Of a DNA stretch of 64,000 nucleotides, positions 2,699 to 60,300 are shown piece after piece. Both the position numbers and the translations under genes were made by a program. The stretch's first letter is position 1; each line of letters starts with the position of its first letter. The notes beneath the pieces were generated by a model, which did not search any database, was not told the DNA's origin, and saw only the letters and a program-made list of their open reading frames with translations. Source of the stretch: a virus; UHGV virus genome UHGV-0311442; one strand, given 5' to 3'.

Positions 2699-4318
2699 TT
2701 ATGGGTTCTTTAATAACGCTTGCGTTGCACGTTTAATCACGTTGTTGATAGGATTGATTTTAAAGTTCCCATCAGAATCGAACCAGTAGTTTTTCGAGTG
2801 TATCCAATTCCGGTTTTCCTCGAGCGCTTCCTGGGACATAGGCGCGTTAAACGACCCGGTATCGCCGTCGTAGTCACCCCCTAAGCCACCTAGACGTGAG
2901 GGGTGTGGTGCCATAGACTCAACGAAGGTAGGAACCGACCGGTCAGGGTAGCTGATAGCCCCTCGGGGTTTTTCAGTTTCCCAGTCATCTTCCAGTTCTT
3001 TTAAGTATAAAGATGACGTGGTGGTCTCCAATCTTATGGTCGATGAATACGTCGAGCCTCGGCCTGTAACGGGATAACGTGTAACGAAACCGAAATAATC
3101 GTTCCAAAGTTCGTAGCCCGACAAATAAAGCAATTCGACGAGCGTCATACCGTGGACGAATTTTCGGTCAAACGTTTTAGGAAGTTCTTCAATATCGTAG
3201 AACACCTTAAAATGTTTGGTGTCTTGGTAAACCAACGCAACGTAGTGGGTGTCGTCCAACATAATCGGTTGATGGCGAAGCTCGCGAGCTTCCATTCGGT
3301 TGATTAAGGATTCAATCCCATCGTCGGTGGTAAAGGTGTCGTATACACGACCACCTACTTCCAAGAATTCACGTTTAAGGGTTTTGGTGTTTACGCCGTA
3401 AAGGTTGCCGTCACCAGCACGGATGTTACCGAGGTAACGTTCACGTATCTGGTATTGGGCGACAGGGAGTAATGCTTTTAAACCCTGGTATAAACCAATT
3501 TTGGTGTCGGTGGGACGAATAGCGTCTTCACGACCCATGCACTTAGACCCCGTCGAGAACGAGGACAGTACGTTACGTGTCCCGTTCATTAATTTACGAG
3601 ACGTCACTTTACGACGTTGGAAACCCCCTTTACCGTCTTGGATGTTAAAGAAATACATCCAGATATCGTTGAAGGTTTGTTGCAGCTTCCAGCGTACGGG
3701 GTTAGTTAATTCAACACGGGTTGCTCGGTCAGGGATCGCTCTGGCGAGTGATACCAACCGACGATACATCCCGCCGATTTCTTCTTCCTGCTCTCTACCA
3801 TCTTGTCGAATTACTAAATCGCGTAAACCCGCGGGTAACACGAGAACGTATCGACTAAGACTAACGGGACGGAATTTCAAAAAGAAATCCACGGTTTCGT
3901 CACGTTGTAGGGACTCGTTACGCTTAGGTTTTAAATCGTTATAGTGACTGAGGAAGAAGTTAAAACCGGTATCTGCGCCTGGGTCTCCCGGCAAGGCCGG
4001 TTCGAAATCTTTTTCTTTTTCGCTCCACGTTGCGTAGCGTTTTCCAGAACAAATTTCTTCGTAGAGTTGTTTGAGTTGGAATAACGCCAAACACACCGTC
4101 GGCGAAATGATATCGAGTTTAATATCGATATAAGAGAAAGTAGAGTCTCGCGCTTCACTCCCCGTGAGTCCAAATATCTCTGTAGAGTAAAGACCTTCGG
4201 GGTGAAAGTTTTTTGTTAACCCCTGGAAAGTATCCGTGGTCGTGACGGGTCGTAATCGCGACACAAGAGACTTGTTTACATTGAGCAGATAAAAGTCAAC
4301 CCAATTAAGTTTATTCAC
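2699..4318 (-). CDS. Multisubunit RNA polymerase beta-prime-like subunit, N-terminal fragment (split gene)
   Basis: 539 aa, GTG start with AGGAG 8 nt upstream. Contains GGDYDGD (compare beta-prime NADFDGD catalytic loop), preceded by RYPVTGRGSTYSSTIRL and N-terminal EIFG...IDIKLDIISPTV resembling beta-prime regions. No zinc finger. Confidence 0.6.
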   Translation of the reverse strand: MNKLNWVDFYLLNVNKSLVSRLRPVTTTDTFQGLTKNFHPEGLYSTEIFGLTGSEARDSTFSYIDIKLDIISPTVCLALFQLKQLYEEICSGKRYATWSEKEKDFEPALPGDPGADTGFNFFLSHYNDLKPKRNESLQRDETVDFFLKFRPVSLSRYVLVLPAGLRDLVIRQDGREQEEEIGGMYRRLVSLARAIPDRATRVELTNPVRWKLQQTFNDIWMYFFNIQDGKGGFQRRKVTSRKLMNGTRNVLSSFSTGSKCMGREDAIRPTDTKIGLYQGLKALLPVAQYQIRERYLGNIRAGDGNLYGVNTKTLKREFLEVGGRVYDTFTTDDGIESLINRMEARELRHQPIMLDDTHYVALVYQDTKHFKVFYDIEELPKTFDRKFVHGMTLVELLYLSGYELWNDYFGFVTRYPVTGRGSTYSSTIRLETTTSSLYLKELEDDWETEKPRGAISYPDRSVPTFVESMAPHPSRLGGLGGDYDGDTGSFNAPMSQEALEENRNWIHSKNYWFDSDGNFKINPINNVIKRATQALLKNP

Positions 4319-4347: not shown

Positions 4348-7300
4348 ATGGCTAAAAAAGGTAAAGATGATTTCGATGAAATCGATCTTGATAACATGGA
4401 CGACTGGGACGATTTTGATGAGCCCCCTCGTCAACAAGACCAATCGCGTAACCCGGTCATGGACACATTTCGTGCTGCCCGTAAGTCGGCGTTGTCGACT
4501 ATCTGGCCCGAAAACAAACGTGATCAGGTTATTTTAAAAGGGATGCCTAAACCTGCGGCAGAAGCCTACGAAGGCTATCAAAACGTTAAAGCTGCAGGTC
4601 AAGACATTCTGGCCCATACGAAAGACGAGATTGAAAAGACGTCTCGCGTCGTCAAGATGCAAGCGAGACAGTTAGGTCCAACACTGAAACGGTATTTACC
4701 GGAATCCGTAACACGGAAAATCGACAAGTGGGCACGTAACGATCAAATCGACTATGGGAATTACGATCCTAAACAAGCGATGATGGATCGTGAGCTGGAC
4801 AGCGTGTTCTCAGGCGCACCGCAAACAGCGGACCAGCAACGTGAGGCGCAAGAGGGGATGGTTGAAGACCGCTTGCGCGACACGATTAAGGACATGAAGT
4901 CCGACGCACTGTTCCAGACCGTAATCGGTATTGCAAAAGACGTCAACTTAACGACTAGCCTAAGTCGTGGCGTGTTGTTGAATGTTCAGCGTAAGCAGTT
5001 AGAGCTGCAATATCGGACGCTGTTTGCTTTGCAGGATATTGCGAAACTCAAACAAGACGAGTTTGCACGCAACACCCCGGCATTAGAAGCCATCGTTAAG
5101 AACACGGCACTACCCGACTACGCGAAGGAAGAGTTTTCTGAAATTCGTTGGGCTAATGTAAAACGTAAAGCTGCGGAGTGGATGAACCCCTTACACTACG
5201 CAGATAATTTCATTGGCCAGATTCGCGAAAACGCGAAGAAGAAAATCTCGAACATCTTTAGTGATGGTCGTGGGATTCTAGAACAAGTTCTAGGGATGGC
5301 TCAGGAAGATGACTTTGACATGTCGGACAGCTCATCGTTGTCTCCTGACCGTCGTAACACAAACTCGCGCAATAAAGCGGCAGGTTTTGCAGGTGGTTGG
5401 TTAGCAAAACGTCTCCTACAACCACAGATCGAGCGACTTCAGAACTGGACGCGTGGCGAGCTAGAGAAAAACCCAGAAGTCATGAAACGCCTACAGTTGG
5501 CGAAGTATGGCTTTGGAAATTTGTCGTCTATTTCTAACTCGGCAATAGCGGGAGAAACAAGCGGCCCGTTAGCTGATCTGTTTCGACTAATGCACGATTT
5601 GGGGCTAGTTAACCCGCTACGTCGCGAAACGTTAGCATTAGACGATCGCTCTGCGGAATCTCTTTCTGCTGCGGCGAAGTTCGATCGTAAAGCTTACCTT
5701 AGTATCACAGAAGTTATTCCGACGTTACTGTCCGAGATTAACAAATCTATTCGTCGTGGGTATGGCGAACACCACGATCAGGTTTATGACTTGACCACGC
5801 GTGGTATGGTCGATCGTAAGGTTATTGGCAATCGTGTACGTAAGGCCGTTGCTAATGACGATCAGCGCAAACGTTTACAGACGTACATCAACGACACTGT
5901 CGACTTTATCGATAAAGATAAAACGCTTGATAGGAAAACACGTCAAGCGTTAGCGGACTACATCGAGTCTCGTGCCTCAGAAGGGAAAGCGTTCGATGTA
6001 GGGTCTTTATTGAAAGACCCGATGCACATGTATCGTTACATGAACGCAAACGCTGTGGAAGCGATTCAGGGTGTTTTAGAAGCCCGTTCTGCGGAACTGG
6101 TTGGTGGACACCATGAACTGAGTAACGCGATTTCAAACAAAATCGCCGCTATCCAGTCAACGATTCGCGCACGACAGGACACTGTTGATGCTGCGTCTGT
6201 GATTTACGGCGAGAATGCACTTCGTGATTCCGGTATTTTTAAATACGATGCGAAGAAAGACATTTTCGAGGTCGATAAGGACATTAACGATCCCTATACG
6301 TTATTTAATGACCTGTCGATGGGTAAGACCCGCTCTGGACGTTCGTTAACCCGTGAGCAAGAGATTCAGCGTAAATTGCAAAACGGTTCTGCGCTGGGTG
6401 ATTACTTGCGACGGATGGGTGCAGGCGCAGAGCCGAGCTTTGAAGACAAAGAACTGTCCAATGTACGTGGCGGTGGAAAAGGAGGTCGTGGTCGCGGTTT
6501 AAGCGCACGCCAACTCGCTGCGGTACTTTATGGAGAGAAATCCACTAACTTTGTTGAACTGTTAAGCAGTCGTCCAGACACGAACGCCGGGTTGGAACAG
6601 CAATTCGACCGTTTGATTGATGCTGTACGTAAACAGCCCGAATCTAGCATCGTGCAAGACATCCTCAAACACGTTAAGAACATGGATGAGGAAGGTATTC
6701 TTCTAGCCAGTTTAGGCGGTAGTCGTGATGACGGTGACGAACCTGAAAGTTCGGGTGAATCAGGCCGTAAACGTCGTCGTAAGCGCAAACGTATTGTACT
6801 AGGCGAGACAGGTTTGTTACGTCGCTGGGCTGGGGTGCTTTGGGATACCGGTTCTGGTGTAGGACGGTTTGGTAAGAATCTGTTCCTACGTGGGAAAGAT
6901 CGCCTACAAGCATTAGGTGGTTTTATTCGTGGGAAATTCTCAGGCGGTTCCTCCGAAGGTCCTGGCGTATTTAGCCGACTGAAAGGGTTAGTAACTGGTA
7001 CATTATCGACGGGTTGGAATTCTGCTGTAGCTTTCGGTAAAGGCGTTTTAGGCGTTCGCGACATCTACGATGAACGTGGTAACGTCGTATTACAAGGAAG
7101 TCGTTTAGAAGCTGGGGAATATTACCAGGCTGACCCGAAAACTGAGAAGCTGATTCAACTTAAAACTCTCGACGATATTAAACTGGGACGTGACATCGTC
7201 GACGAAGCGGGTAATTTAATCTTAGCTGCTGCTGATTTGGCTGCCGCAGGTAAACTGCGTTTCTACAAAGGCGGTAAAGTTCAAGCGCTTTTCCAGTACA

Positions 7301-11514: not shown

Positions 11515-11521
11515 CAGTAAT

Positions 11522-11551
11522 CGGGGGTAGTTACCTACCCCCTACTTTTTT
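11522..11551 (+). terminator. Rho-independent terminator-like hairpin after the giant gene
   Basis: Stem GGGGGTAG/CTACCCCC, loop TTAC, followed by TACTTTTTT. Confidence 0.5.
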
Positions 11552-11562
11552 AGAGGTATAAA

Positions 11563-27391: not shown

Positions 27392-27489
27392 CGAGCTTTA
27401 CCTTTATGGAAGAGTCTCGGTCATAAGGTTTGGGTGAACTGTAAAAAGACTTTACTATGTAACCCTGACTTATAATCCGAGGTTTTAGA

Positions 27490-28245
27490 ATGAATGTAAA
27501 TCCACTTGCAGCGTTATCTAGCTTCGCCGCTAAAGCGTCTGCAATCTTACCGAAAGGGTTTAGCGGCCCTCAACAAGAGATTGCATTAACCACTTATGAC
27601 GAGATGTCGGACGTTTCCAAGTGGATGCAACAAGAAAAATTCCTACACTTTGCGGGAATGTTGGTTATCGTTCCACCAGGGTTTAATACCTACGTGATGG
27701 ATCATTTGAACCGCTTAGAATCTGTATGGAGTTCACTACAAAACATCTATACGGGTATTCTGCTACCGGTCGATAAACAACTTTCGGCCCTTACACATGA
27801 TGTGGGGGTACTGTCATTACCGATTGGTTTCCGTTACAAAAACGTTAATTTGCCGTTACGTAATGTTAACCCGAAAGACCTGGTTAACTTATTAGCGAAA
27901 TCGTACACTAATAACGTTATTGACCAGCGACCAATTGAGAAGACGTACCACAGCGCGTCTGAGATTGACGTTGCGTTCAATCGTGCTAAAGCCCTGAACG
28001 TTGAAATCACAAAACGTCTACGGACGAACATCGACAAGTCAATCGAGTCCATTCGCACTACGTCAGAAATCTTGTCCGAACAAAACATTCATCCGAATGT
28101 AGCAAAAGAACTGACGATGATGTTAGATTTTGCATCCGATTGGGTGGAGCTGTTTGGTTTGTTCATGAAACAGGTTAACGAGTTAATCGAATGTCTGAAC
28201 GTTACTGCCGAACGCTTAAAAGCGCTTAAGGCAAACAAAAAATAA
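27490..28245 (+). CDS. Hypothetical protein (251 aa)
   Basis: Isolated plus-strand ORF with ATG start, followed by a bidirectional terminator. Confidence 0.55.
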   Translation: MNVNPLAALSSFAAKASAILPKGFSGPQQEIALTTYDEMSDVSKWMQQEKFLHFAGMLVIVPPGFNTYVMDHLNRLESVWSSLQNIYTGILLPVDKQLSALTHDVGVLSLPIGFRYKNVNLPLRNVNPKDLVNLLAKSYTNNVIDQRPIEKTYHSASEIDVAFNRAKALNVEITKRLRTNIDKSIESIRTTSEILSEQNIHPNVAKELTMMLDFASDWVELFGLFMKQVNELIECLNVTAERLKALKANKK

Positions 28246-38535: not shown

Positions 38536-38580
38536 AAAAGATTACCCTACTCCTTCGGGAGTAGGGTAGCTTTTATTTTA
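38534..38580. terminator. Bidirectional rho-independent terminator
   Basis: Stem CCCTACTCC/GGAGTAGGG, loop TTCG, A-run upstream and T-run downstream. Confidence 0.75.
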
Positions 38581-50232: not shown

Positions 50233-50257
50233 CACCTAAGTAATATATATCTGAAAT
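50233..50257. promoter_or_regulatory. Conserved 25-mer CACCTAAGTAATATATATCTGAAAT upstream of the secreted-protein operon
   Basis: 23 of 25 positions identical to CACTTAAGTAAAATATATCTGAAAT at 54519-54543; reverse complement contains TATATTAC. Confidence 0.4.
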
Positions 50258-50277
50258 TATTTTTAATATTAACGAAC

Positions 50278-50310
50278 AAAAAATAAAAGGTGGGGGTAAA
50301 CCCCCACCGA
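50278..50310 (-). terminator. Rho-independent terminator (minus strand)
   Basis: Stem GGTGGGGG/CCCCCACC, loop TAAA; A-run on the plus strand upstream. Confidence 0.65.
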
Positions 50311-50312
50311 TG

Positions 50313-50903: not shown

Positions 50904-51677
50904 CTATTGATTAAGTTTTACATCGGCAATAAACAGCAATTGTTTACCATGTTGCTGCACTTCTTTCCAACCTAGTTTCATAGCAGCGTCAACAACATCT
51001 AACATGCTGTAACGGGACATCAACGCGGTTGATTTTGTTCCTGACATTAAATAAAGCGGCTCATTAGGGCAACGGTCTCGAGCATCAGGAAGTTCTCGAA
51101 TAACCGCTGAGCCTTCGGGTGCGGTAACAACGTGAATCACGGTAAATGGTCTCTTATGCGTTAAATAGATACGAAATCCAACGTGTTCAGATTCATGAAA
51201 GATTTTCTTCACAACCACATCTTTTAGTGTTGTCTGAACATCATCCCCAGGTAATATCGTGGATTCACGAGAAACGAAACAACGACTATTTTCAATCGTG
51301 GAGAAATAATTACGTATCGGCAAACTGGCGTTATGATCGCGCAGTTTTTTGCTCAATAGATCGAAGTTCAGTTCTTTAACTTTTTCTAACCACTCTTTGG
51401 CTTGTTGAATGTAATAACTACCAACAGCGCGATAAGTTAATACCTTACCTGTGCTCACTTTCCAAAGCTTGATGCTTAGTGAATTTGGCTTATAGCGACG
51501 ATACTCACCCTGCGTATGGTTGATGCGCTCGTAACGCTCTACATCATCAACTGGTGCAGATTCGACCGATTGTAATTGCAGCGTACGATCTAATCTATCG
51601 GCAAATAGTAGTGATGATAGCGGGCCTTCGATCATATACGGTTCGGTTTTAAAGATATCGTCTAAATGGACTTTCAT
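50904..51677 (-). CDS. Paralog family member 1 (257 aa) with C-terminal GW...QLLF(I/V)AD module
   Basis: C-terminus AAMKLGWKEVQQHGKQLLFIADV; N-terminus MKVHLDDIF matches member 4 (MKELLDDIF). Confidence 0.55.
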   Translation of the reverse strand: MKVHLDDIFKTEPYMIEGPLSSLLFADRLDRTLQLQSVESAPVDDVERYERINHTQGEYRRYKPNSLSIKLWKVSTGKVLTYRAVGSYYIQQAKEWLEKVKELNFDLLSKKLRDHNASLPIRNYFSTIENSRCFVSRESTILPGDDVQTTLKDVVVKKIFHESEHVGFRIYLTHKRPFTVIHVVTAPEGSAVIRELPDARDRCPNEPLYLMSGTKSTALMSRYSMLDVVDAAMKLGWKEVQQHGKQLLFIADVKLNQ

Positions 51678-51744: not shown

Positions 51745-52896
51745 TTAAAGGTCAGCAACAAACAGCAGCTGACTGCCGTACGGTTCGACAGATTTCCAAC
51801 CGTAATCTTTACCGATCGTCGTTAGATGGCCGGTATTTAACTTTTTGTCAACCATCCGCAGACGCATCATTAGCGTATTGGATTCTGCCGCATCGAGTAA
51901 CAACGCAGGTTCTTTTTCAGTGCGGTCATCCGCTTTCGGGAAGAAACTGTAATACTGACTTTTGGGCAGTTCGATTGTCAACGTATAGTTTTTCTTTGTA
52001 ATGAATAACGCCATCCCTTCGAAATTACAATCGAAACGATATTCCCAACCCGCCTCGGCTAAAACGTCTTTTAGCATTTCCATGACTTTAAGCTGGTTAA
52101 CGCTAGGCAGTCGGTAAGCTGCAAGGTTACTTGGAAATATGCGTATACCGTCGACGACACTATCGGTGGTTTCGTCAATAAGTTCAGGATAACGTTGCGA
52201 GAAAATATGATCGCTCTTGCTTTTCTCTTCGATGTCACGAATGAATTGGGCTATTTCGTCTCTTAAGCCAGACACTTGATTTTCTCCTTCGACTTCAATA
52301 ATCTGGTGGGGTTCGCCGCTAATTAAAATGTGGTAAACGATGTCGTCGGTAGAACGGTAAGTGAGTTTGATAGCTTTATCACTTAACATTTCGTAGCGGA
52401 AGAAACTTTCGTACCAAGTTGACCCGAAATCGTTTCGTGTAAGTTCCTGCTCAACTTTGATGGTTTTTGCTTCAAAACCAATTAACCCACTTAATAACGC
52501 GTGTTCTGGTTTAGTTAAAATGTTCGCACCGTGAAAGGGCACTTTCTCAAGCTGAAAACATAAATTACTGACTTTACCACTTGGGAAGACCTTAAACATA
52601 ATCTTCCGGCTGCTACTCTTTTCCCTAACAACGAGTTTACGGTAATTTAGTCCACAATTTGTGTAAACCGCGAACTTGTAACCTTCAATTTCTTCATCGT
52701 AAGTACAGACATCGACAGGTGCGATAATCTCATTGTATTCAGTAAGTACACAGCAGCCCAAGTTATAACCAAACAACTCACGTTGTAATGAAGATTCGAT
52801 GGTTAAGCTTGGTAGTGACCAAGTCCGATTATAGCATCTGTCCATCAGTTCTTTTAGGATCTTGGCATGTCCTGGCTTAGAAATAATATTTCGCAT
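51745..52896 (-). CDS. Paralog family member 2 (383 aa), module present twice
   Basis: C-terminus GKDYGWKSVEPYGSQLLFVADL plus internal AEAGWEYRFDCNFEGMALFITKK. Confidence 0.55.
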   Translation of the reverse strand: MRNIISKPGHAKILKELMDRCYNRTWSLPSLTIESSLQRELFGYNLGCCVLTEYNEIIAPVDVCTYDEEIEGYKFAVYTNCGLNYRKLVVREKSSSRKIMFKVFPSGKVSNLCFQLEKVPFHGANILTKPEHALLSGLIGFEAKTIKVEQELTRNDFGSTWYESFFRYEMLSDKAIKLTYRSTDDIVYHILISGEPHQIIEVEGENQVSGLRDEIAQFIRDIEEKSKSDHIFSQRYPELIDETTDSVVDGIRIFPSNLAAYRLPSVNQLKVMEMLKDVLAEAGWEYRFDCNFEGMALFITKKNYTLTIELPKSQYYSFFPKADDRTEKEPALLLDAAESNTLMMRLRMVDKKLNTGHLTTIGKDYGWKSVEPYGSQLLFVADL

Positions 52897-53510: not shown

Positions 53511-54248
53511 TTACGCGGTTTTAATTAACAGCAGATAGTCCTTCGTAATCTCAGCACAACCCCACCCTCTCATCGCGGCGATTTTACGAAGATCAATTTT
53601 CTCGTGATATCTCAATAAGGGATCGCCTGAGTTAATCTCAACCAGGTGTGTGGCTTTAGAAATCGTTTCTACATCAGGGATCTGTTTTGCTAAGTCGGAT
53701 GCAATTAACTCGATGATACGGTATCCCTCTAACACAGAAACATAGATGCGCAAACCATATAGCGTGCCTTCGTCTTCTAATGGACAAAGATCGATGCCGG
53801 GTCCAAGCAGTGATAACTCGACGTTATCGGGAAGGTTTTCTGCATTTCGGAGTAACCCTATCCCATTTCTAAACAGAGGGAAGTAAGAGAATAGTGGTGG
53901 TAAAGCCCAACCGTTCCCAATAAGCACATCAGCGATACTCGTAGGTGTGTTCGCAAGAAGACGAATGTGGTCAGCCACAACTTCAAGTTCGGCGTCACTG
54001 ATCAACTTATAGATTAACATGACACTGGTTTCGGTATTAATAACAAAGAAGACGCGGTTGGCGTAACTGCCTATCACGTATTCGTCAATCATACAGTCGA
54101 TAACGTCACTGTCTGGATAATCTTCAGGTTTAATTGTTCCAGCATCGATTAACTTAGCAGGTTGCGATTGTTTTATTAGTTCGTTAACCACCGTAGAAGA
54201 AAGTTCTAAACTGGTGTTGGTAAAGATATCGTCTAATAATTCTTTCAT
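53511..54248 (-). CDS. Paralog family member 4 (245 aa), degenerate module
   Basis: C-terminus AAMRGWGCAEITKDYLLLIKTA; N-terminus MKELLDDIF matches member 1. Confidence 0.5.
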   Translation of the reverse strand: MKELLDDIFTNTSLELSSTVVNELIKQSQPAKLIDAGTIKPEDYPDSDVIDCMIDEYVIGSYANRVFFVINTETSVMLIYKLISDAELEVVADHIRLLANTPTSIADVLIGNGWALPPLFSYFPLFRNGIGLLRNAENLPDNVELSLLGPGIDLCPLEDEGTLYGLRIYVSVLEGYRIIELIASDLAKQIPDVETISKATHLVEINSGDPLLRYHEKIDLRKIAAMRGWGCAEITKDYLLLIKTA

Positions 54249-54340
54249 GATTTACTCGCTAATCCCAATGAAGGGAAGGCTATTATTATGGATTGTAAAA
54301 GAGGTATAAGGAAGTCACTACGTTCCTCTGGGAAGAGTAT

Positions 54341-54410
54341 GTCGGTATACTCCGTATACCTCCGCTATTTATATCCGTATACATAATGCCCCCTACCCCC
54401 TACCGGTATC
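54341..54410. promoter_or_regulatory. Cluster of GTATAC-containing palindromic repeats in a 320-bp divergent intergenic region
   Basis: CGGTATAC (54343-54350), CCGTATAC (54352-54359 and 54375-54382), CCGGTATC (54403-54410); ACATAATG occurs twice (54381-54388, 54431-54438). Confidence 0.4.
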
Positions 54411-54487
54411 CCGAGTAGCAGAATAAAGGGACATAATGTAATTTTTAGTAACCTTTAACGAAAGGTACTAAAAGGGTAACGTGTCCG

Positions 54488-54517
54488 TAGGGACTGAACT
54501 GGTACTTCAGTCCCTAT
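54488..54517. promoter_or_regulatory. Stem-loop in the divergent intergenic region
   Basis: Inverted repeat GGGACTGAA/TTCAGTCCC with 7-nt loop, just upstream of the conserved 25-mer. Confidence 0.35.
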
Positions 54518-54518
54518 T

Positions 54519-54543
54519 CACTTAAGTAAAATATATCTGAAAT
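54519..54543 (+). promoter_or_regulatory. Conserved 25-mer CACTTAAGTAAAATATATCTGAAAT, candidate promoter element for the plus-strand gene at 54569
   Basis: Near-identical copy of the element at 50233-50257; ends 25 nt before the ATG at 54569. Confidence 0.4.
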
Positions 54544-54568
54544 CAATTCCGATCTAAGGAACGTCCCG

Positions 54569-55534
54569 ATGGAGAAATCCAGTGTTGATTTTTTCTCAAT
54601 TGGTATCGTCGCGGAAGACAAACCCCGTGGTACAGATCGGGTAAAAGTGATACCAATTGAAACTAACTTTGCTAACCCTACCGTGGTGCAATCTGTTTCT
54701 TCAGCAACTGAAAAGACGCATGAAACGTCTGGTGCAACAGATAACCTAACCATTAAGACGGGTAACACGATAACAGCAAAGTGGTGGAAGTTTAACTCCA
54801 ACCGAATTAATTCCCCTGACGTTAAACGAGAAGACTACGTTATCTTGTTACGTTTGGGGAAAACCGATATTTATTTTTGGATTGATCTGAACTTCGCTAA
54901 CGTTAAGCGATTAGAAGATGCGGTTTATGCGTGGTCGGCTGACCCTGAAAACCAAATGGCGGATGACTTGTCCAATGCGTATGTGTTGAACGTTTCGACG
55001 ATTGACAAACATATCACGCTAAGAACAAGTATGGTGAATGGCGAGAAAGCGGCGTGGTTGTTTCAGTTTGATAATGCAAACGGTACGTGGCAGTGCGTTG
55101 ACCATAAAGGAAACAAGTATTACATTAACTCGGTTGAAGATGATCTCGGGTTTGAGAATGCGATGCTTTCAAAAGTGAACATCAACAAAGAAGATGCGTT
55201 CATTTATTCAAAGCGTTCTATTAACCTGGAAACGAAAACGATTAATGAAAAATGCGAAGTTCGCAATACAGAAGCAGCGAAATCCGTTACGTTTAAAACA
55301 CAAACCTGGTTAACGGAAGCGGGAAGTTCGACAACGTTTAAAACGCCGAACTTTAAACAAGAAGGGAAGGAAGCGATGTTCACCGGTAATTTGGAAATCG
55401 CTAAGAACTTCAAATACGGTGGTACGGGTGAAGGTGTGGGTGTCTTTACGGTTAAAGATGCTGTTATTTCCGGTATTACCTTTAGCGTTCACATTCACCA
55501 AGGTAAACATGGTCCGACATCACCTCCGCAATAA
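54569..55534 (+). CDS. Hypothetical protein, probable tail-module component (321 aa)
   Basis: Plus-strand ORF with ATG start and AAGGAACG upstream, at the edge of the tail-fibre gene block. Product unknown. Confidence 0.5.
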   Translation: MEKSSVDFFSIGIVAEDKPRGTDRVKVIPIETNFANPTVVQSVSSATEKTHETSGATDNLTIKTGNTITAKWWKFNSNRINSPDVKREDYVILLRLGKTDIYFWIDLNFANVKRLEDAVYAWSADPENQMADDLSNAYVLNVSTIDKHITLRTSMVNGEKAAWLFQFDNANGTWQCVDHKGNKYYINSVEDDLGFENAMLSKVNINKEDAFIYSKRSINLETKTINEKCEVRNTEAAKSVTFKTQTWLTEAGSSTTFKTPNFKQEGKEAMFTGNLEIAKNFKYGGTGEGVGVFTVKDAVISGITFSVHIHQGKHGPTSPPQ

Positions 55535-55740: not shown

Positions 55741-55950
55741 ATGTCTATTAAAGAGTTCTCTTCTGCTGAGCATATTCCAGAAGAGTTTAAGAAAATCGGT
55801 AACGTTAGCGCCTTCGGCGATACCGTTGATCATGTAACTGGTAAGCTGGCTGCTGAAGCCGAAAAAATTGGCGGCGACGCATTCAAAGTTATCGGTATTT
55901 CCGGCAACAACAAACTGCACGGTAACGCGATTGTCTACAAAAAAGACTAA
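55741..55950 (+). CDS. BhsA/YcfR-like (DUF1471 family) small protein lacking a signal peptide
   Basis: 69 aa, ATG at 55741 (track start 55723 is TTG). GGDAFKVIGISGNNKLHGNAIVYK closely resembles the BhsA C-terminus GAKSFRITSVTGPNTLHGTAVIYK; in-frame stop 30 nt upstream excludes a leader. Confidence 0.55.
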   Translation: MSIKEFSSAEHIPEEFKKIGNVSAFGDTVDHVTGKLAAEAEKIGGDAFKVIGISGNNKLHGNAIVYKKD

Positions 55951-57263: not shown

Positions 57264-57331
57264 AGCTCTTTTCCTCTATAGATTCAAGTCATAGTATGAA
57301 CTTCGACGCCCACGGACTATAGGAGTAGAGA

Positions 57332-60300
57332 ATGGCTGTCGTCCTAGACCCACACTTCAAAAAACCGGGGAATAAAATAACCGGTGAAGCGGTCGCCGTC
57401 TTTGGTACGAAATACCGAATGTTGGTACCTGCCCACGCCCCTTTTTTCACCACATCCCTGGTGGTCAAGAGCGGCGGCAAAACACTGACCATAGGCGACG
57501 ATTACGTTATTACGCACCCGTACGAGACCGGTATGTTGCGCACAGCCTATCTCATTCACGGGATGATTTGGATTGTTAATGACAAATACAAATCGAATTT
57601 TACGGTAGATTACCACGCCGTTGGTTGTGGTCAGGCTACCCAACAACAGATTACCGCAGAACGCGAACTCAATAAAGATAAATACCCGTCTGCGTGTCAG
57701 TGGGACACCGTCATCGGGGACGTTTACTTTCCACCGGTCGATATCCAGTTCGATTGGGAGAATTGGAAAGGTGAACTGGAATTAATGCAGGCTATTGCTG
57801 GATTAGGCGATTCGTTAGGGGAAGTCGTGAGTCGGCTTAACCCCATCGCACGCAATACCCTGGATTTAGAATACCGTGCTAATAGCAAGGTTATCACTTC
57901 CGAGCAGTATGCCGTATACGACAATAAAGGTGGCTTCACCTACAACACTGCCCGTCATCGTTATAGCTTGAGTTATAAAACTGCAACCTTTAACGACTAC
58001 GCCCTGTCAGTGAAACACAGAATTCCTGCTATTCTGCCAGACATGACGAAATTGAATCCAAACGAACAGATCGATTGGATGCTCTGTTATGCTAACGGCG
58101 GTGCAAGTATTCTACGGCTGCAGCTAAAACAGCGCAAAATCTCACTGGTCTTAACGGTCGCTATTGGTAGCGGTTCAACAAACTACGATTATACGTTAAT
58201 CAACGGCTTAACTGACGATGAGTTAAAAAACGATATCGATTTTAGTGTAACCCGACAACCCGGAAACGGTGTTTACGTCATCGTAGTAAAAACAAATAAA
58301 CAGACCATGGATTACACATTCAATGTCGATACGCCGCCTGATGAGTTCTCGGCAGGGTATTCGAAAACGGATGTTGCTAAATGGTTGAAGTTTAAAACGA
58401 ACATTAATTTAAACTGGTATGCGGCCGAAAACGATTATATTCAAATTCGTTCTTTACCCGGCGCACCAGAACCTGACATCGATAACGATGTTTACCAGTT
58501 AATAGTCAAATACCATCAGTTAGTTGAGCAGCTGTATCGTAACGCGCCTGCACACGAACACGTTACACGTAAGGACAACCCGCACACCGATACGTGGGGT
58601 CCGATCCGTGCGTTAGAGCTGAATGGTATTGCGACAGATGCCGCGTTAGCTTACGGGAAGACGAAACAGCAGTTAACGGATTATGTTAATGCTAAGTACC
58701 CAACACAAGCAACGTTAACCGCACAGAAAAAACTGCTTCGTGAATCGCCGAGCAAGAACGTTAACGGCACGATTACCACACTTCCGGGTTTTACTTCGTT
58801 CACGACGGAAGTTGATCCGGTCTCGATGTCGAAATACGTGAGTCCTTATTTTAGCGAAAGCTATGTTAGTAGTGGTCACAGATATCACGGCGCGCTTCGT
58901 TATACAGGAGCGAAAAGCGGTTTCAGTGCTAACTTTAATGCAGTGCCTGCCAACCTGCAAGATATTGACTTTATTGTTACTGGACGTAAAACAGCGTCTG
59001 GTAATGAAGCGGTCGGTAGGGTTGGTTTACGTTTCTACGAAAATCCTGGTAGTAACTCCGGTAAGTACGTAGAGATTACCGGTGAAGTCTGGTCCGGTAC
59101 TCTTACTATCGAACTGGCGTTGCACGGTTACGGTAGTCCGGTACCGGCAGTTCGGTATATTTCACAAGCTCCTAACCCGGCAATACCGGATGGGGATTTT
59201 ACGCTACGTTTTCAACTGAAGCGTACAGGGAATGTGTTTGACGTCGTTATTACCGTAAACAGTAAAACGTATAGCGGTAGGATTAACTTCAATAACATGG
59301 ACGCTGCGTTAGAAGCATTAGAGAATCAGCACCACTTTAAATCGCTGATCAATAATGTTGCCGACGCCGTTACCATTAGTTCGCAAAACAAAGGTAACAC
59401 GGTTACCATTAAGAAAGCACCGGATGTTGTTGACGAGACACGTTTAGGTGCCCAGTTTGTTGTTGATCCGAAATCCATCAAGTTTATTGGCCAAGGTTCA
59501 ACTGATGTTAACGTGGCTAACAACCCCGTAACGTTCCAAGCAGGTACTAACCAGCTTGTGCTATACCCCGATGACCGAGGATTGTTGTGGCGTGGTAAAA
59601 AACTCTTAGACCCCACCACCGTAGCCCCGTATCTGCCAGGCAATACCGCAGGTGGCACAGGTTTATTCTACGCAAGTTCGACAACAACGGTTACGATCAC
59701 CGGTAGCGGGATAAAAGCCTCGCCGTTCGTAGCGACCTTTATTCTTCCTACCGCGACCGATACAACAGCTCTGGCAGCTTGGCAGTTGACCGATGAGTTC
59801 GGTACCGCTGAAAACCTTGCAGCAACGCCAGCACTGATTGAAAAACTCGATGCGGAGTTCACCGGTAAGTTAGTTGCAGTTAAATCGTACATTAACGACA
59901 TGCAACTTACCAGCTCGGTTACTATCGATAAGATTACCTTTGGTTTAGGTAACGTTGCGAATACGCCTGATGTCGATTTACCGATTTCTACAGCACAACG
60001 TGCGGAGTTAGATAAATACTCGCCTAAAGTTCACCAACACCCGTTTACCGCTTTTGGTACAGGGAACGCAACCACAGCGCAACGTGGTCTGATTAAATTT
60101 GGTCTGGATGTGGATGATGCGACTTTAGCACTCGATGGGAGTGTGGTAATGGCGCAGACTTCCCAGATTGAAAAATTGGAGCGCGCTGTCAGCGGTGTTG
60201 ACTCGGAGGCACGTCTTGACATTATACGTTTTGGTGAGTCTGGTAACGACTTAATAGACGTTACGGTCAAAGACAAAATTCTGGTCACGCTTCCAGCTTC

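Follow-up and report, generated by a model that had tools for sequence, protein, structure and literature searches.

Phages of the phiKZ type encode two RNA polymerases, a virion enzyme that transcribes from early promoters and a non-virion enzyme that transcribes from middle and late promoters (PMC7598289, PMC12809450). Their late promoters are described as 5'-TATG-3', with the G as position +1 (PMC7598289, PMC12809450), and the phiKZ polymerase strictly requires TATG (PMC12809450). For the early promoters, the N1M2 consensus is TBYAWWWWWTTTCARRYAKATATTATYWAAGTGWA, those of OBP and 201phi2-1 are similar, and the phiKZ core is TATATTAC (PMC7058600 Table 2); the N1M2/OBP consensus was published as a prediction for phiKZ-related phages (PMC7058600). 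Here we analyze an intergenic gap in a 64,000-nucleotide stretch of the virus genome UHGV-0311442 (hereafter the window), which to judge by its sequence comes from a phiKZ-like (Chimalliviridae) jumbo phage whose nearest relatives are Erwinia phage phiEaH2 and Salmonella phage SPN3US. The gap, at 54249–54568, separates a block of leftward genes from a rightward baseplate gene and holds an early-class promoter, conserved stem-loops, and a conserved noncoding module. To our knowledge, the host polymerase is not used by these phages.

We propose, with a probability of roughly 0.55, that the gap is the control region between the leftward early operon and the baseplate gene, in which early and late promoters stand face to face, each with a 5' hairpin, and give rise to overlapping leaders. 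The early leftward transcript would start at about 54520 and form an 11-bp hairpin 3 nt farther on, and the late rightward transcript of the non-virion polymerase would start at G54341 with a second hairpin, stem-loop B, 3 nt downstream, in the same geometry as at the early promoter. The module would be the start and 5' leader of late transcription to the baseplate gene, and each transcript would begin with a protective 5' hairpin, a structure that protects bacterial mRNAs from decay dependent on the 5' end. The leaders of the two transcripts would be complementary over about 180 nt, an overlap that could help to silence the early operon late in infection. The features central to this proposal are as follows (ORF, open reading frame):

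54249–54568: the gap, 320 bp, between the ORF at 53511–54248 (minus strand) and the ORF at 54569–55534 (plus strand) of the ORF map
53511–54248, minus strand: the left ORF, first gene of the leftward block, 245 amino acids
54306–54430: the conserved module of about 125 bp upstream of the baseplate gene, composed of AAGGAWGTC, a stem-loop, CCTCCGC, and C5-N2-3-C5 and delimited by alignment of relatives
54338–54341, plus strand: candidate TATG start for the non-virion polymerase, with G54341 as +1, inside a near-invariant motif
54344–54360, both strands: stem-loop B, GGTATAC-TCC-GTATACC, which contains GTATAC copies 1 and 2, recognized from folding and covariation
54488–54516, both strands: stem-loop with an 11-bp stem (54488–54498 with 54506–54516) around a loop of 7 nt, beginning 3 nt after the predicted early start
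54518–54548, minus strand: predicted early (virion RNA polymerase) promoter, TTTCAGATATATTTTACTTAAGTGA, recognized by its match to the consensus
54555–54571, plus strand: ribosome-binding site (RBS; TAAGGAA) and ATG of the baseplate hub/puncturing-device gene 54569–55534, read from the sequence

The identity and orientation of the early promoter are shown by comparison with the published consensus. About 24 of 26 positions of 54518–54548 agree with the N1M2/OBP consensus TTTCARRYAKATATTATYWAAGTGWA, and the minus strand at 54519–54539 has a single mismatch to CARRYAKATATTAYYWARGTG. A pattern built from the consensus matches the window four times, in all four cases on the minus strand, against 0.14 matches expected. 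The initial annotation of the window had recorded this sequence as a conserved 25-mer. The repeat family is real and has four members (23406, 32522, 50232, and the copy at 54518–54548, with the minus-strand reading CAGATATATATTACTTAGGTGA and similar), but it had been read on the wrong strand, and the 25-mer is, by its consensus, a leftward early promoter of known kind that points away from the baseplate gene, rather than an element fronting the tail gene. Minus-strand start codons (23384, 32500, and 50183) follow 22–50 nt downstream of the other three copies, the early promoters are co-oriented with operons of genes without assigned function in the window, and the motif is also found in phiEaH2, SPN3US, the relatives L012 and L074, Phobos, and Derbicus. 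In consensus, recurrence, co-orientation, and conservation in relatives, the predicted promoter is therefore like those of phiKZ-related phages (TATATTAC in phiKZ, TTTCARRYAKATATTATYWAAGTG in OBP/N1M2, and that of 201phi2-1); it differs from the phiKZ promoter in its AT core, which is TATATTTTAC in the window copy, and from the group in the 270-nt leader that lies between it and its first gene, a distance that results from the deletion of a mini-gene discussed below. In the phiKZ group, the virion polymerase makes the early transcripts, with starts about 10 nt beyond the AT core, and we predict that transcription from 54518–54548 likewise depends on the virion polymerase and starts at about 54519–54521, going left. 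Given that no further early-promoter match occurs between 54248 and 50262, this transcript plausibly runs through the entire gap and serves the five minus-strand genes between 54248 and 50313.

The 11-bp hairpin next to the predicted start has arms that are 100% complementary (-17.8 kcal/mol, z = -4.5); its stem, previously put at 9 bp, extends over 11. Among nine distinct sequences from the clade to which the window belongs (hereafter the window clade), three pairs show compensatory change (GAC/GTC, AGC/GCT, GGT/ACC, and GGC/GCC), and every cell of the alignment pairs on the plus strand, where two pairs are G·U that would be A·C on the minus strand. These two events give a weak hint that the plus-strand RNA of the hairpin may also matter. 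We do not regard the hairpin as a terminator because no U-run follows it on either strand, and the terminator scan was blank here. The early promoter at 50233–50262 is likewise followed by a hairpin (AGAGTTA/TAACTCT). In one sister genome (L060, baseplate ATG at position 1201), about 50–80 nt upstream of the ATG, the loop is reverse-complemented, reading GTACCAG for CTGGTAC, with the stem unchanged; here the hairpin as a whole has flipped.

Stem-loop B folds at -7.4 and -9.2 kcal/mol on the two strands, and RNAalifold recovers it on both. In an alignment of 11 distinct relatives, six of its seven pairs have changed on both sides, and the 20 double-change cells compare with 6.1 ± 2.0 in shuffled alignments (0 of 500 reach 20) and with at most 5 in slid controls. 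The arms read GGTATAC/GTATACC in the window clade, GGTGAC/GTCACC in phiEaH2, GGTATCC/GGATACC in SPN3US, and GGTACTCT/AGAGTACC in STsAS, and in other clades GGTACCC/GGGTACC (pEa29), GGTAGC/GCTACC (pEa43), GGAT/ATCC (L027), and GTCT/AGAC (L014 and Kwan). The GTATAC of the window is thus replaced in relatives by GTGAC/GTCAC, GTATCC/GGATAC, GTACTCT/AGAGTAC, GTACCC/GGGTAC, or GTAGC/GCTAC, and complementarity is always kept. Double changes so far above the shuffled level point to selection for pairing rather than for GTATAC. Besides these hairpins, the gap contains the following features:

54295–54301, plus strand: A-tract GTAAAAG just upstream of the module, resembling the A-tract of A-tract/TATG promoters
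54308–54326, plus strand: element A, AAGGAAGTCACTACGTTCC, a small stem-loop (AGGAA/UUCCU) at the left edge of the module, recognized from relatives and folding
54359–54365, plus strand: CCTCCGC flank of stem-loop B, whose core CTCCG (54360–54364) is invariant in the alignments and whose flanking bases vary
54377–54382, both strands: third GTATAC, in the variable spacer before the C-run, overlapping a minus-strand TATG that runs from 54385 down to 54382
54389–54400, plus strand: CCCCCTACCCCC, the C5-N2-3-C5 motif (G5-N-G5 on the minus strand), present in every relative with the module and unique in the window
54401–54430, plus strand: TACCGGTATCCCGAGTAGCAGAATAAAGGG, right part of the module, identical in all window-clade relatives, with neighboring sequence diverged on both sides
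54438–54448, plus strand: GTAATTTTTAG, decayed counterpart of the A-tract CGTAAAAAAG of relatives, with the TATG lost, identified by alignment
54443–54473, both strands: imperfect hairpin that holds an AGGTAC palindrome, the 3'-end remnant of a deleted minus-strand mini-gene

The covariation of stem-loop B bears directly on the function that the initial annotation had tentatively assigned to this gap, that of an operator array for a phage regulator that switches between the leftward block and the tail module; on this reading, the GTATAC half-sites would bind a dimeric protein. Three GTATAC sites, each preceded by CG or CC, do lie in the divergent gap (54345, 54354, and 54377); the possible fourth is absent. 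Their occurrence within 32 bp is improbable under random placement (P of about 4e-4, calculated post hoc), which, like the location, favors the proposal. However, GTATAC is at background frequency in the window as a whole (16 sites against 14.0 expected), an outcome that the annotation itself had named as contradicting a genome-wide operator motif, and no other cluster exists in the 64 kb. Moreover, two of the three copies are the arms of one hairpin; an operator array would keep its base sequence in relatives, whereas these arms vary between clades and keep their complementarity, and the counterparts of the third copy in relatives (ATACATAA and CACACAGATC) are not palindromic. Since relatives keep the pairing but not GTATAC, selection appears to act on the fold and not on a base sequence read by a protein, so GTATAC itself does not seem to be a recognition site, and we give the operator array almost no credence. 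The short repeat ACATAATG, reported twice in the gap, is indeed present at 54381 and 54431 but at chance level (2 copies found in the window, 2.2 expected), and we discarded it as an element, the second copy being lost even in sister phages (ACAATCTG and GCAGACTG). For scans of this type, the case teaches that clustered palindromes can turn out to be the paired arms of a single evolving hairpin.

The AGGTAC palindrome, which had also been pointed out, is present as AGTAACCTTT/AAAGGTACT, with 13-nt arms at 54443–54455 and 54461–54473 that are 85% complementary, and comparison with sister genomes indicates its origin. A 25-codon minus-strand ORF is intact between the hairpin and the module in L004 (at 2791–2868), L005, L006, L063, L064, L066, and L072. 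Two alleles exist, MSTEKKSGLDEVIELFKRYNPAIPR and M(F/L)AEQKDGIEEVVRLFRHYSPYLPR, which are of equal length and about 50% identical, and because length is kept despite many substitutions we consider this mini-ORF to be a real gene. It is frameshifted at an A-run in L013 and L062 (7 or 5 A's, the frame requiring 6) and deleted in the window, L003, L060, L061, and L065. The alignment thereby identifies 54433–54487 as the scar of the deleted mini-gene, with the AGGTAC palindrome as its remnant. The arrangement is reminiscent of the promoter-early stem-loop (PeSL) cassettes of T4-type phages, reportedly described by Arbiol, Comeau and Krisch in 2010, in which an early promoter and a stem-loop are said to border a small, variably present gene; the promoter, the 11-bp hairpin, and the 25-codon ORF, intact in some sisters and frameshifted or deleted in others, would be the analogous parts, and the polymerase and the consensus differ here.

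We compared the region upstream of the baseplate gene in an alignment of 17 loci and in further loci by eye, about 20 distinct sequences in all, drawn from Erskinevirus, Seoulvirus, Machinavirus, Wellingtonvirus, Derbicusvirus, and metagenomic relatives. They share a common plus-strand plan, which consists of an A-tract; (A)ATAAGGA-N-GTC; a stem-loop; CCTCCGC; a spacer of 11–26 nt; C5-N2-3-C5; a spacer of about 35 nt; CGTAAAAAAG; 3–15 nt; TA(R)TATGA; and the RBS and ATG. The sequences AAGGAWGTC and CCTCCGC on the two sides of the stem-loop are nearly invariant. The C5-N2-3-C5 motif is kept in 17 of 17 loci, at a distance from the baseplate ATG of 75–106 nt in the 13 loci outside the window clade and of 279–282 nt within it. 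In all clades sampled at a baseplate protein identity of at least 41%, the module lies upstream of the baseplate gene, with various left neighbors, and it is single copy in the window. Within the window clade, 54306–54430 is essentially invariant and both flanks differ, including the left gene (L063 and L072). Element A, the fold of which is weak (-3.8 kcal/mol, z = -1.2), has an exact or near-exact copy, one per genome, in each of 10 IMG/VR contigs from jumbo phages and sits upstream of the baseplate gene in phiEaH2, Phobos, and Derbicus. The module is absent in phiKZ, Aeromonas phage D3, and Vibrio phage MS32, in which the baseplate gene is close to its neighbor (gap of 20–72 bp), and in L074, which has a leftward early promoter and an A-tract/TATG promoter only. 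Our literature searches found no paper describing the module, and we regard it as a new and so far undescribed representative of the regulatory or leader elements that are conserved in phage intergenic regions.

The late promoter of our proposal follows from what has become of the usual baseplate promoter in the window. In relatives, the ATG of the baseplate gene is preceded at about 20 nt by CGTAAAAAAG-N3-15-TA(R)TATGA, and this combination of A-tract and TATG appears to fit the promoter type of the non-virion polymerase. In the window clade, this proximal promoter has been pushed 200 bp from the gene by the mini-gene cassette, and it has decayed in the sub-clade of the window. Given that the downstream proximal promoter is decayed and that the baseplate gene needs a promoter, we posit that the TATG at 54338–54341 is the start. 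The surrounding motif is AAGGATGTC in relatives and GAGTATGTC in the window clade, in which a clade-specific GGA to GTA change created the TATG; on the plus strand of the gap, TATG occurs only here, inside the module, and at 54286–54289, just to its left. The TA(R)TATGA before the baseplate ATG of relatives and the candidate TATG within a conserved motif of the window resemble phiKZ late promoters. In contrast, the A-tract (GTAAAAAAG) conserved 3–15 nt upstream in this group is undescribed for phiKZ, and the module site reads mostly GATG or GAAG in relatives. Elsewhere in the window, CTGTAAAAAGACTTTACTATGTAAC at 27441–27459 (plus strand), of the A-tract/TATG form, precedes a plus-strand gene at 27490, and CATAGTATGAAC at 57289–57300 (plus strand) precedes the gene of a 1440-residue virion protein at 57332; the two resemble the late promoters of A-tract/TATG form in front of the baseplate genes of relatives.

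Several observations weigh against this proposal. About 2.5 TATGs are expected by chance in 320 bp of two strands, and most relatives read GATG, GAAG, GAGG, or GGTG, not TATG, at the proposed start. Stem-loop B, as stable on one strand as on the other and free of G·U pairs, favors neither strand, and a minus-strand TATG lies just after the G-run in four clades. The left genes of SPN3US and phiEaH2 have no other visible promoter, and the module could therefore be a leftward promoter and leader. An Aeromonas version of the element, described below, lies between two terminators and far from any gene start. Our literature search found no transcriptome or mapped start for SPN3US-like phages, and the antisense silencing of the early operon is purely conjectural.

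The third of these points can be developed into a different account, in which G5-N-G5 followed by YTRTGT (the TATG from 54385 down to 54382) would start non-virion transcription leftward, making the module a leftward promoter and 5' leader, a possibility that we judge to be somewhat unlikely. That stem-loop B and the GACATCCTTATT motif would then form the 5' untranslated region (UTR) of whichever gene lies to the left seems to us similarly unlikely. In the window clade, phiEaH2, and SPN3US, only about 25–60 nt lie between the module edge and the start of the left gene, which leaves no room for another promoter, and SPN3US gp092 and phiEaH2 gp096 have no early-promoter motif upstream. YTRTGT right after the G-run is conserved in most clades, but it contains TATG in only 4 of about 10, the others having TGTG or, as in phiEaH2 and Phobos, nothing similar. 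To the right of the module, the window clade has a leftward early promoter, as Aeromonas phages possibly do, so that minus-sense RNA of the module would be made; however, this promoter is found on the left side of the module in Phobos, Derbicus, and L012, where the left gene therefore does not need the module. The module also stays with the baseplate gene while the left genes change. With respect to the strand on which the module works, stem-loop B is equally foldable both ways, and RNAalifold, which found the hairpin on both strands, gave no strand assignment. The few strand-specific pairs, one G·U in a 3-bp outer helix (pEa43 type) and two in the 11-bp hairpin, all lie on the plus strand, against a leftward module.

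The face-to-face arrangement must also accommodate the element found in Aeromonas Ferozepurvirus. In three phages of this genus, element A is matched at 21 of 22 positions, preceded by the same AAAGAATAAAGG lead-in and followed after 18 nt by a CCCTACCC run (L033:2480–2560; L075 and L076:1480–1560); this copy lies in a gap of 300 bp that is conserved, contains no ORF, and is bounded by two convergent terminator hairpins. Because this copy is insulated by terminators and free of ORFs, it suggests a structured RNA transcribed from its own promoter and could be a noncoding transcription unit that stands alone; a loosely early-promoter-like sequence, GATGGTATATTATATGTCACC, lies just to its right on the minus strand, and we rejected this sequence as a leftward early promoter because the match is loose, with more than 7 mismatches to the consensus. 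More generally, the module could be an autonomous single-copy element of enterobacterial and Aeromonas chimalliviruses, either a structured RNA with its own promoter or an R-loop origin, and so more than a gene-specific leader; we consider this quite unlikely.

We think it slightly less probable still that the module acts as double-stranded or locally unwound DNA, that is, as a protein-binding platform or as a replication origin with an R-loop formed by a G-rich leftward transcript on the C-rich template. The single copy per genome, two to three direct repeats of RGTCR-type motifs (AAGGA-N-GTC), and the Aeromonas copy, insulated by terminators on both sides and lacking an ORF, would agree with this idea, as would the position of the C-run in relatives, 31–43 nt from the A-tract of the baseplate promoter and about 55–75 nt upstream of the baseplate TATG start. 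G-runs serve primer formation in ColE1 RNA II and at mitochondrial CSB II, an analogy that we count in favor of an R-loop origin. However, the sequence, length, and loop of the stem vary freely under strict complementarity, unlike the evolution of a double-stranded DNA operator; no candidate binding protein is known, and the G-runs are only two. We know of no origin defined in any phiKZ-like phage that could serve for comparison, which we count against the idea. GC skew was discarded as an origin signal, given that it tracks gene orientation only.

Other interpretations of the module were considered and set aside. A small ORF from the ATG of AAGGATGTC is contradicted by the absence of the ATG in clades with AAGGAAGTC, AAGGAGGTC, or AAGGGTGTC and by differing frames; the only real small ORF of the region is the 25-residue one that is deleted in the window. 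Pairing of the C-run with the baseplate RBS occurs in some minimum free energy folds, but the C-run spacer and the RBS region show no covariation (Caitlin, pEa43, and L012). Readings of AAGGAWGTC/CCTCC as a CsrA site (ARGGAUGU), a kink-turn, or an anti-Shine-Dalgarno sequence were not adopted, the GGA being lost in the window clade and the internal loop being unfit for a kink-turn. The 19-mer of element A also matches eight non-jumbo contigs of IMG/VR, which we attribute to chance, since about 13 chance matches are expected by our estimate and several fall in coding sequence.

A few further observations concern the module or its parts. Machinavirus-type modules (L009, L012, and L037) contain three to four GATC (Dam) sites, which flank the C-run and the A-tract over a span of about 110 bp; there are none in the window module. 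In an unrelated 14-kb viral contig (L052:1150–1325), four tandem units about 45 bp apart read GAGCG-N-AGCGA-NNN-TCCTTATT; the unit is the reverse complement of element A of Derbicus and has the look of an iteron array, although the likeness may be due to chance, and the neighboring ORFs have no PHROG match. At 4290–4300 of the window (plus strand), about 48 nt before the gene of a 2388-residue tail/endolysin-like protein at 4348, TAAAAGTCAAC has the sequence of an 11-mer that the SPN3US module carries at its left edge (GTTAAAAGTCAAGGTCAAC) and is possibly another promoter element.

With regard to described noncoding elements, the module resembles the small RNA (sRNA) candidates of phiKZ and 201phi2-1 that derive from 5' UTRs or intergenic regions (for example the one upstream of the tail gene gp182/gp277) in being conserved, structured, noncoding DNA upstream of a tail or baseplate gene across genera. 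These sRNAs differ in being defined by a mapped start and a premature terminator. Measured by the features of 5'-UTR-derived sRNAs (own start, premature terminator, and length below 250 nt), the module has conservation and a conserved fold, and no terminator follows it. The phiKZ sRNA upstream of gp182 was rejected as a homolog of the module, given that the gp181–gp182 gap contains a terminator hairpin only and shows no similarity. Face-to-face promoter switches exist, as in pR/pL of coliphage 186, with which our proposed arrangement would share converging predicted starts (54341 rightward and about 54520 leftward) and overlapping transcripts; here, two phage polymerases would act at different times, without a repressor.

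The placement of the window among giant phages is supported by a tblastn search with the baseplate protein, which matched 290 phage records. Almost all of these are genomes of giant phages, about 200–320 kb long, and many are named phiKZ-like; the best matches have 73% amino acid identity, to Erwinia phages Stratton and phiEaH2, and 62%, to Salmonella phage SPN3US. At the DNA level, a megablast search of the window against deposited phages gave no match and a sensitive blastn search against known phages gave short matches only; near-identical relatives are metagenome and IMG/VR contigs of 220–229 kb. The gene to the right of the gap, 54569–55534, encodes a baseplate assembly protein (PHROG 3216, E = 9e-114). 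Downstream of it, a 69-residue plus-strand ORF (55741–55950), kept in relatives, contains a YdgH/BhsA/McbA-like (DUF1471) domain (Pfam, E = 1.4e-9), that is, a small protein of bacterial stress/biofilm type on a phage.

The left ORF, 53511–54248, has no PHROG, Pfam, or phage tblastn match, and its N-terminus is paralogous to that of ORF 50904–51677 (common DNA at 54221–54248 and 51650–51677, repeat family D20). In the leftward block (ORFs 50904–51677, 51745–52896, and 53511–54248), a C-terminal domain is common to two genes (PHROG 26772 and 33648). The genes with common N- or C-termini appear to form a paralogous family, without an assigned function, downstream of the early promoter at 54518–54548, which would drive it.

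Neither sigma-70 promoters nor, on either strand, intrinsic terminators (a GC-rich hairpin followed by a U-run) were found in the gap. Terminators of the phiKZ type have the form of a hairpin plus TTAT. The typical terminators of this phage differ from the hairpins of the gap, for example at 38536–38577 and 50290–50312. Those at 11515–11562, 38536–38577, and 50290–50312 have stems of the CCCTAC/GTAGGG type and then a T-run, as in GGGGGTAGTTACCTACCCCC followed by TACTTTTTT; the CCCCCTACCCCCTAC of the module resembles a single arm of such a stem, with the partner arm absent. Searches of the window with Rfam 15 and for tRNAs gave no tRNA and no match at the gathering score, the best being a U5 snRNA at 23 bits (gathering threshold of 40, E = 0.33).

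Taken as a whole, the features that the initial annotation picked out are largely real, and the gap is probably the longest noncoding stretch of the window, as had been stated, given that larger gaps in the ORF map hold small ORFs or an ORF that leaves the window end. Its broad idea of a regulatory hub is right, in view of the early-class promoter, the conserved stem-loops, and the conserved noncoding module beside the baseplate gene; the operator array that it offered as the mechanism is wrong.

Most of what is known about gene regulation in nucleus-forming jumbo phages comes from phiKZ and 201phi2-1 and from Bacillus phage AR9, which is more distant, and the source of specificity of late promoters that are defined by TATG only is an open question. 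For the SPN3US/phiEaH2 group, the present comparison adds a clear set of early promoters, the A-tract plus TATG form, and a covarying stem-loop module tied to the baseplate hub gene. If true, the face-to-face arrangement would be a simple switch for the hand-over between polymerases; if the module is instead autonomous, it would be either a new conserved RNA or the first origin candidate for these phages.

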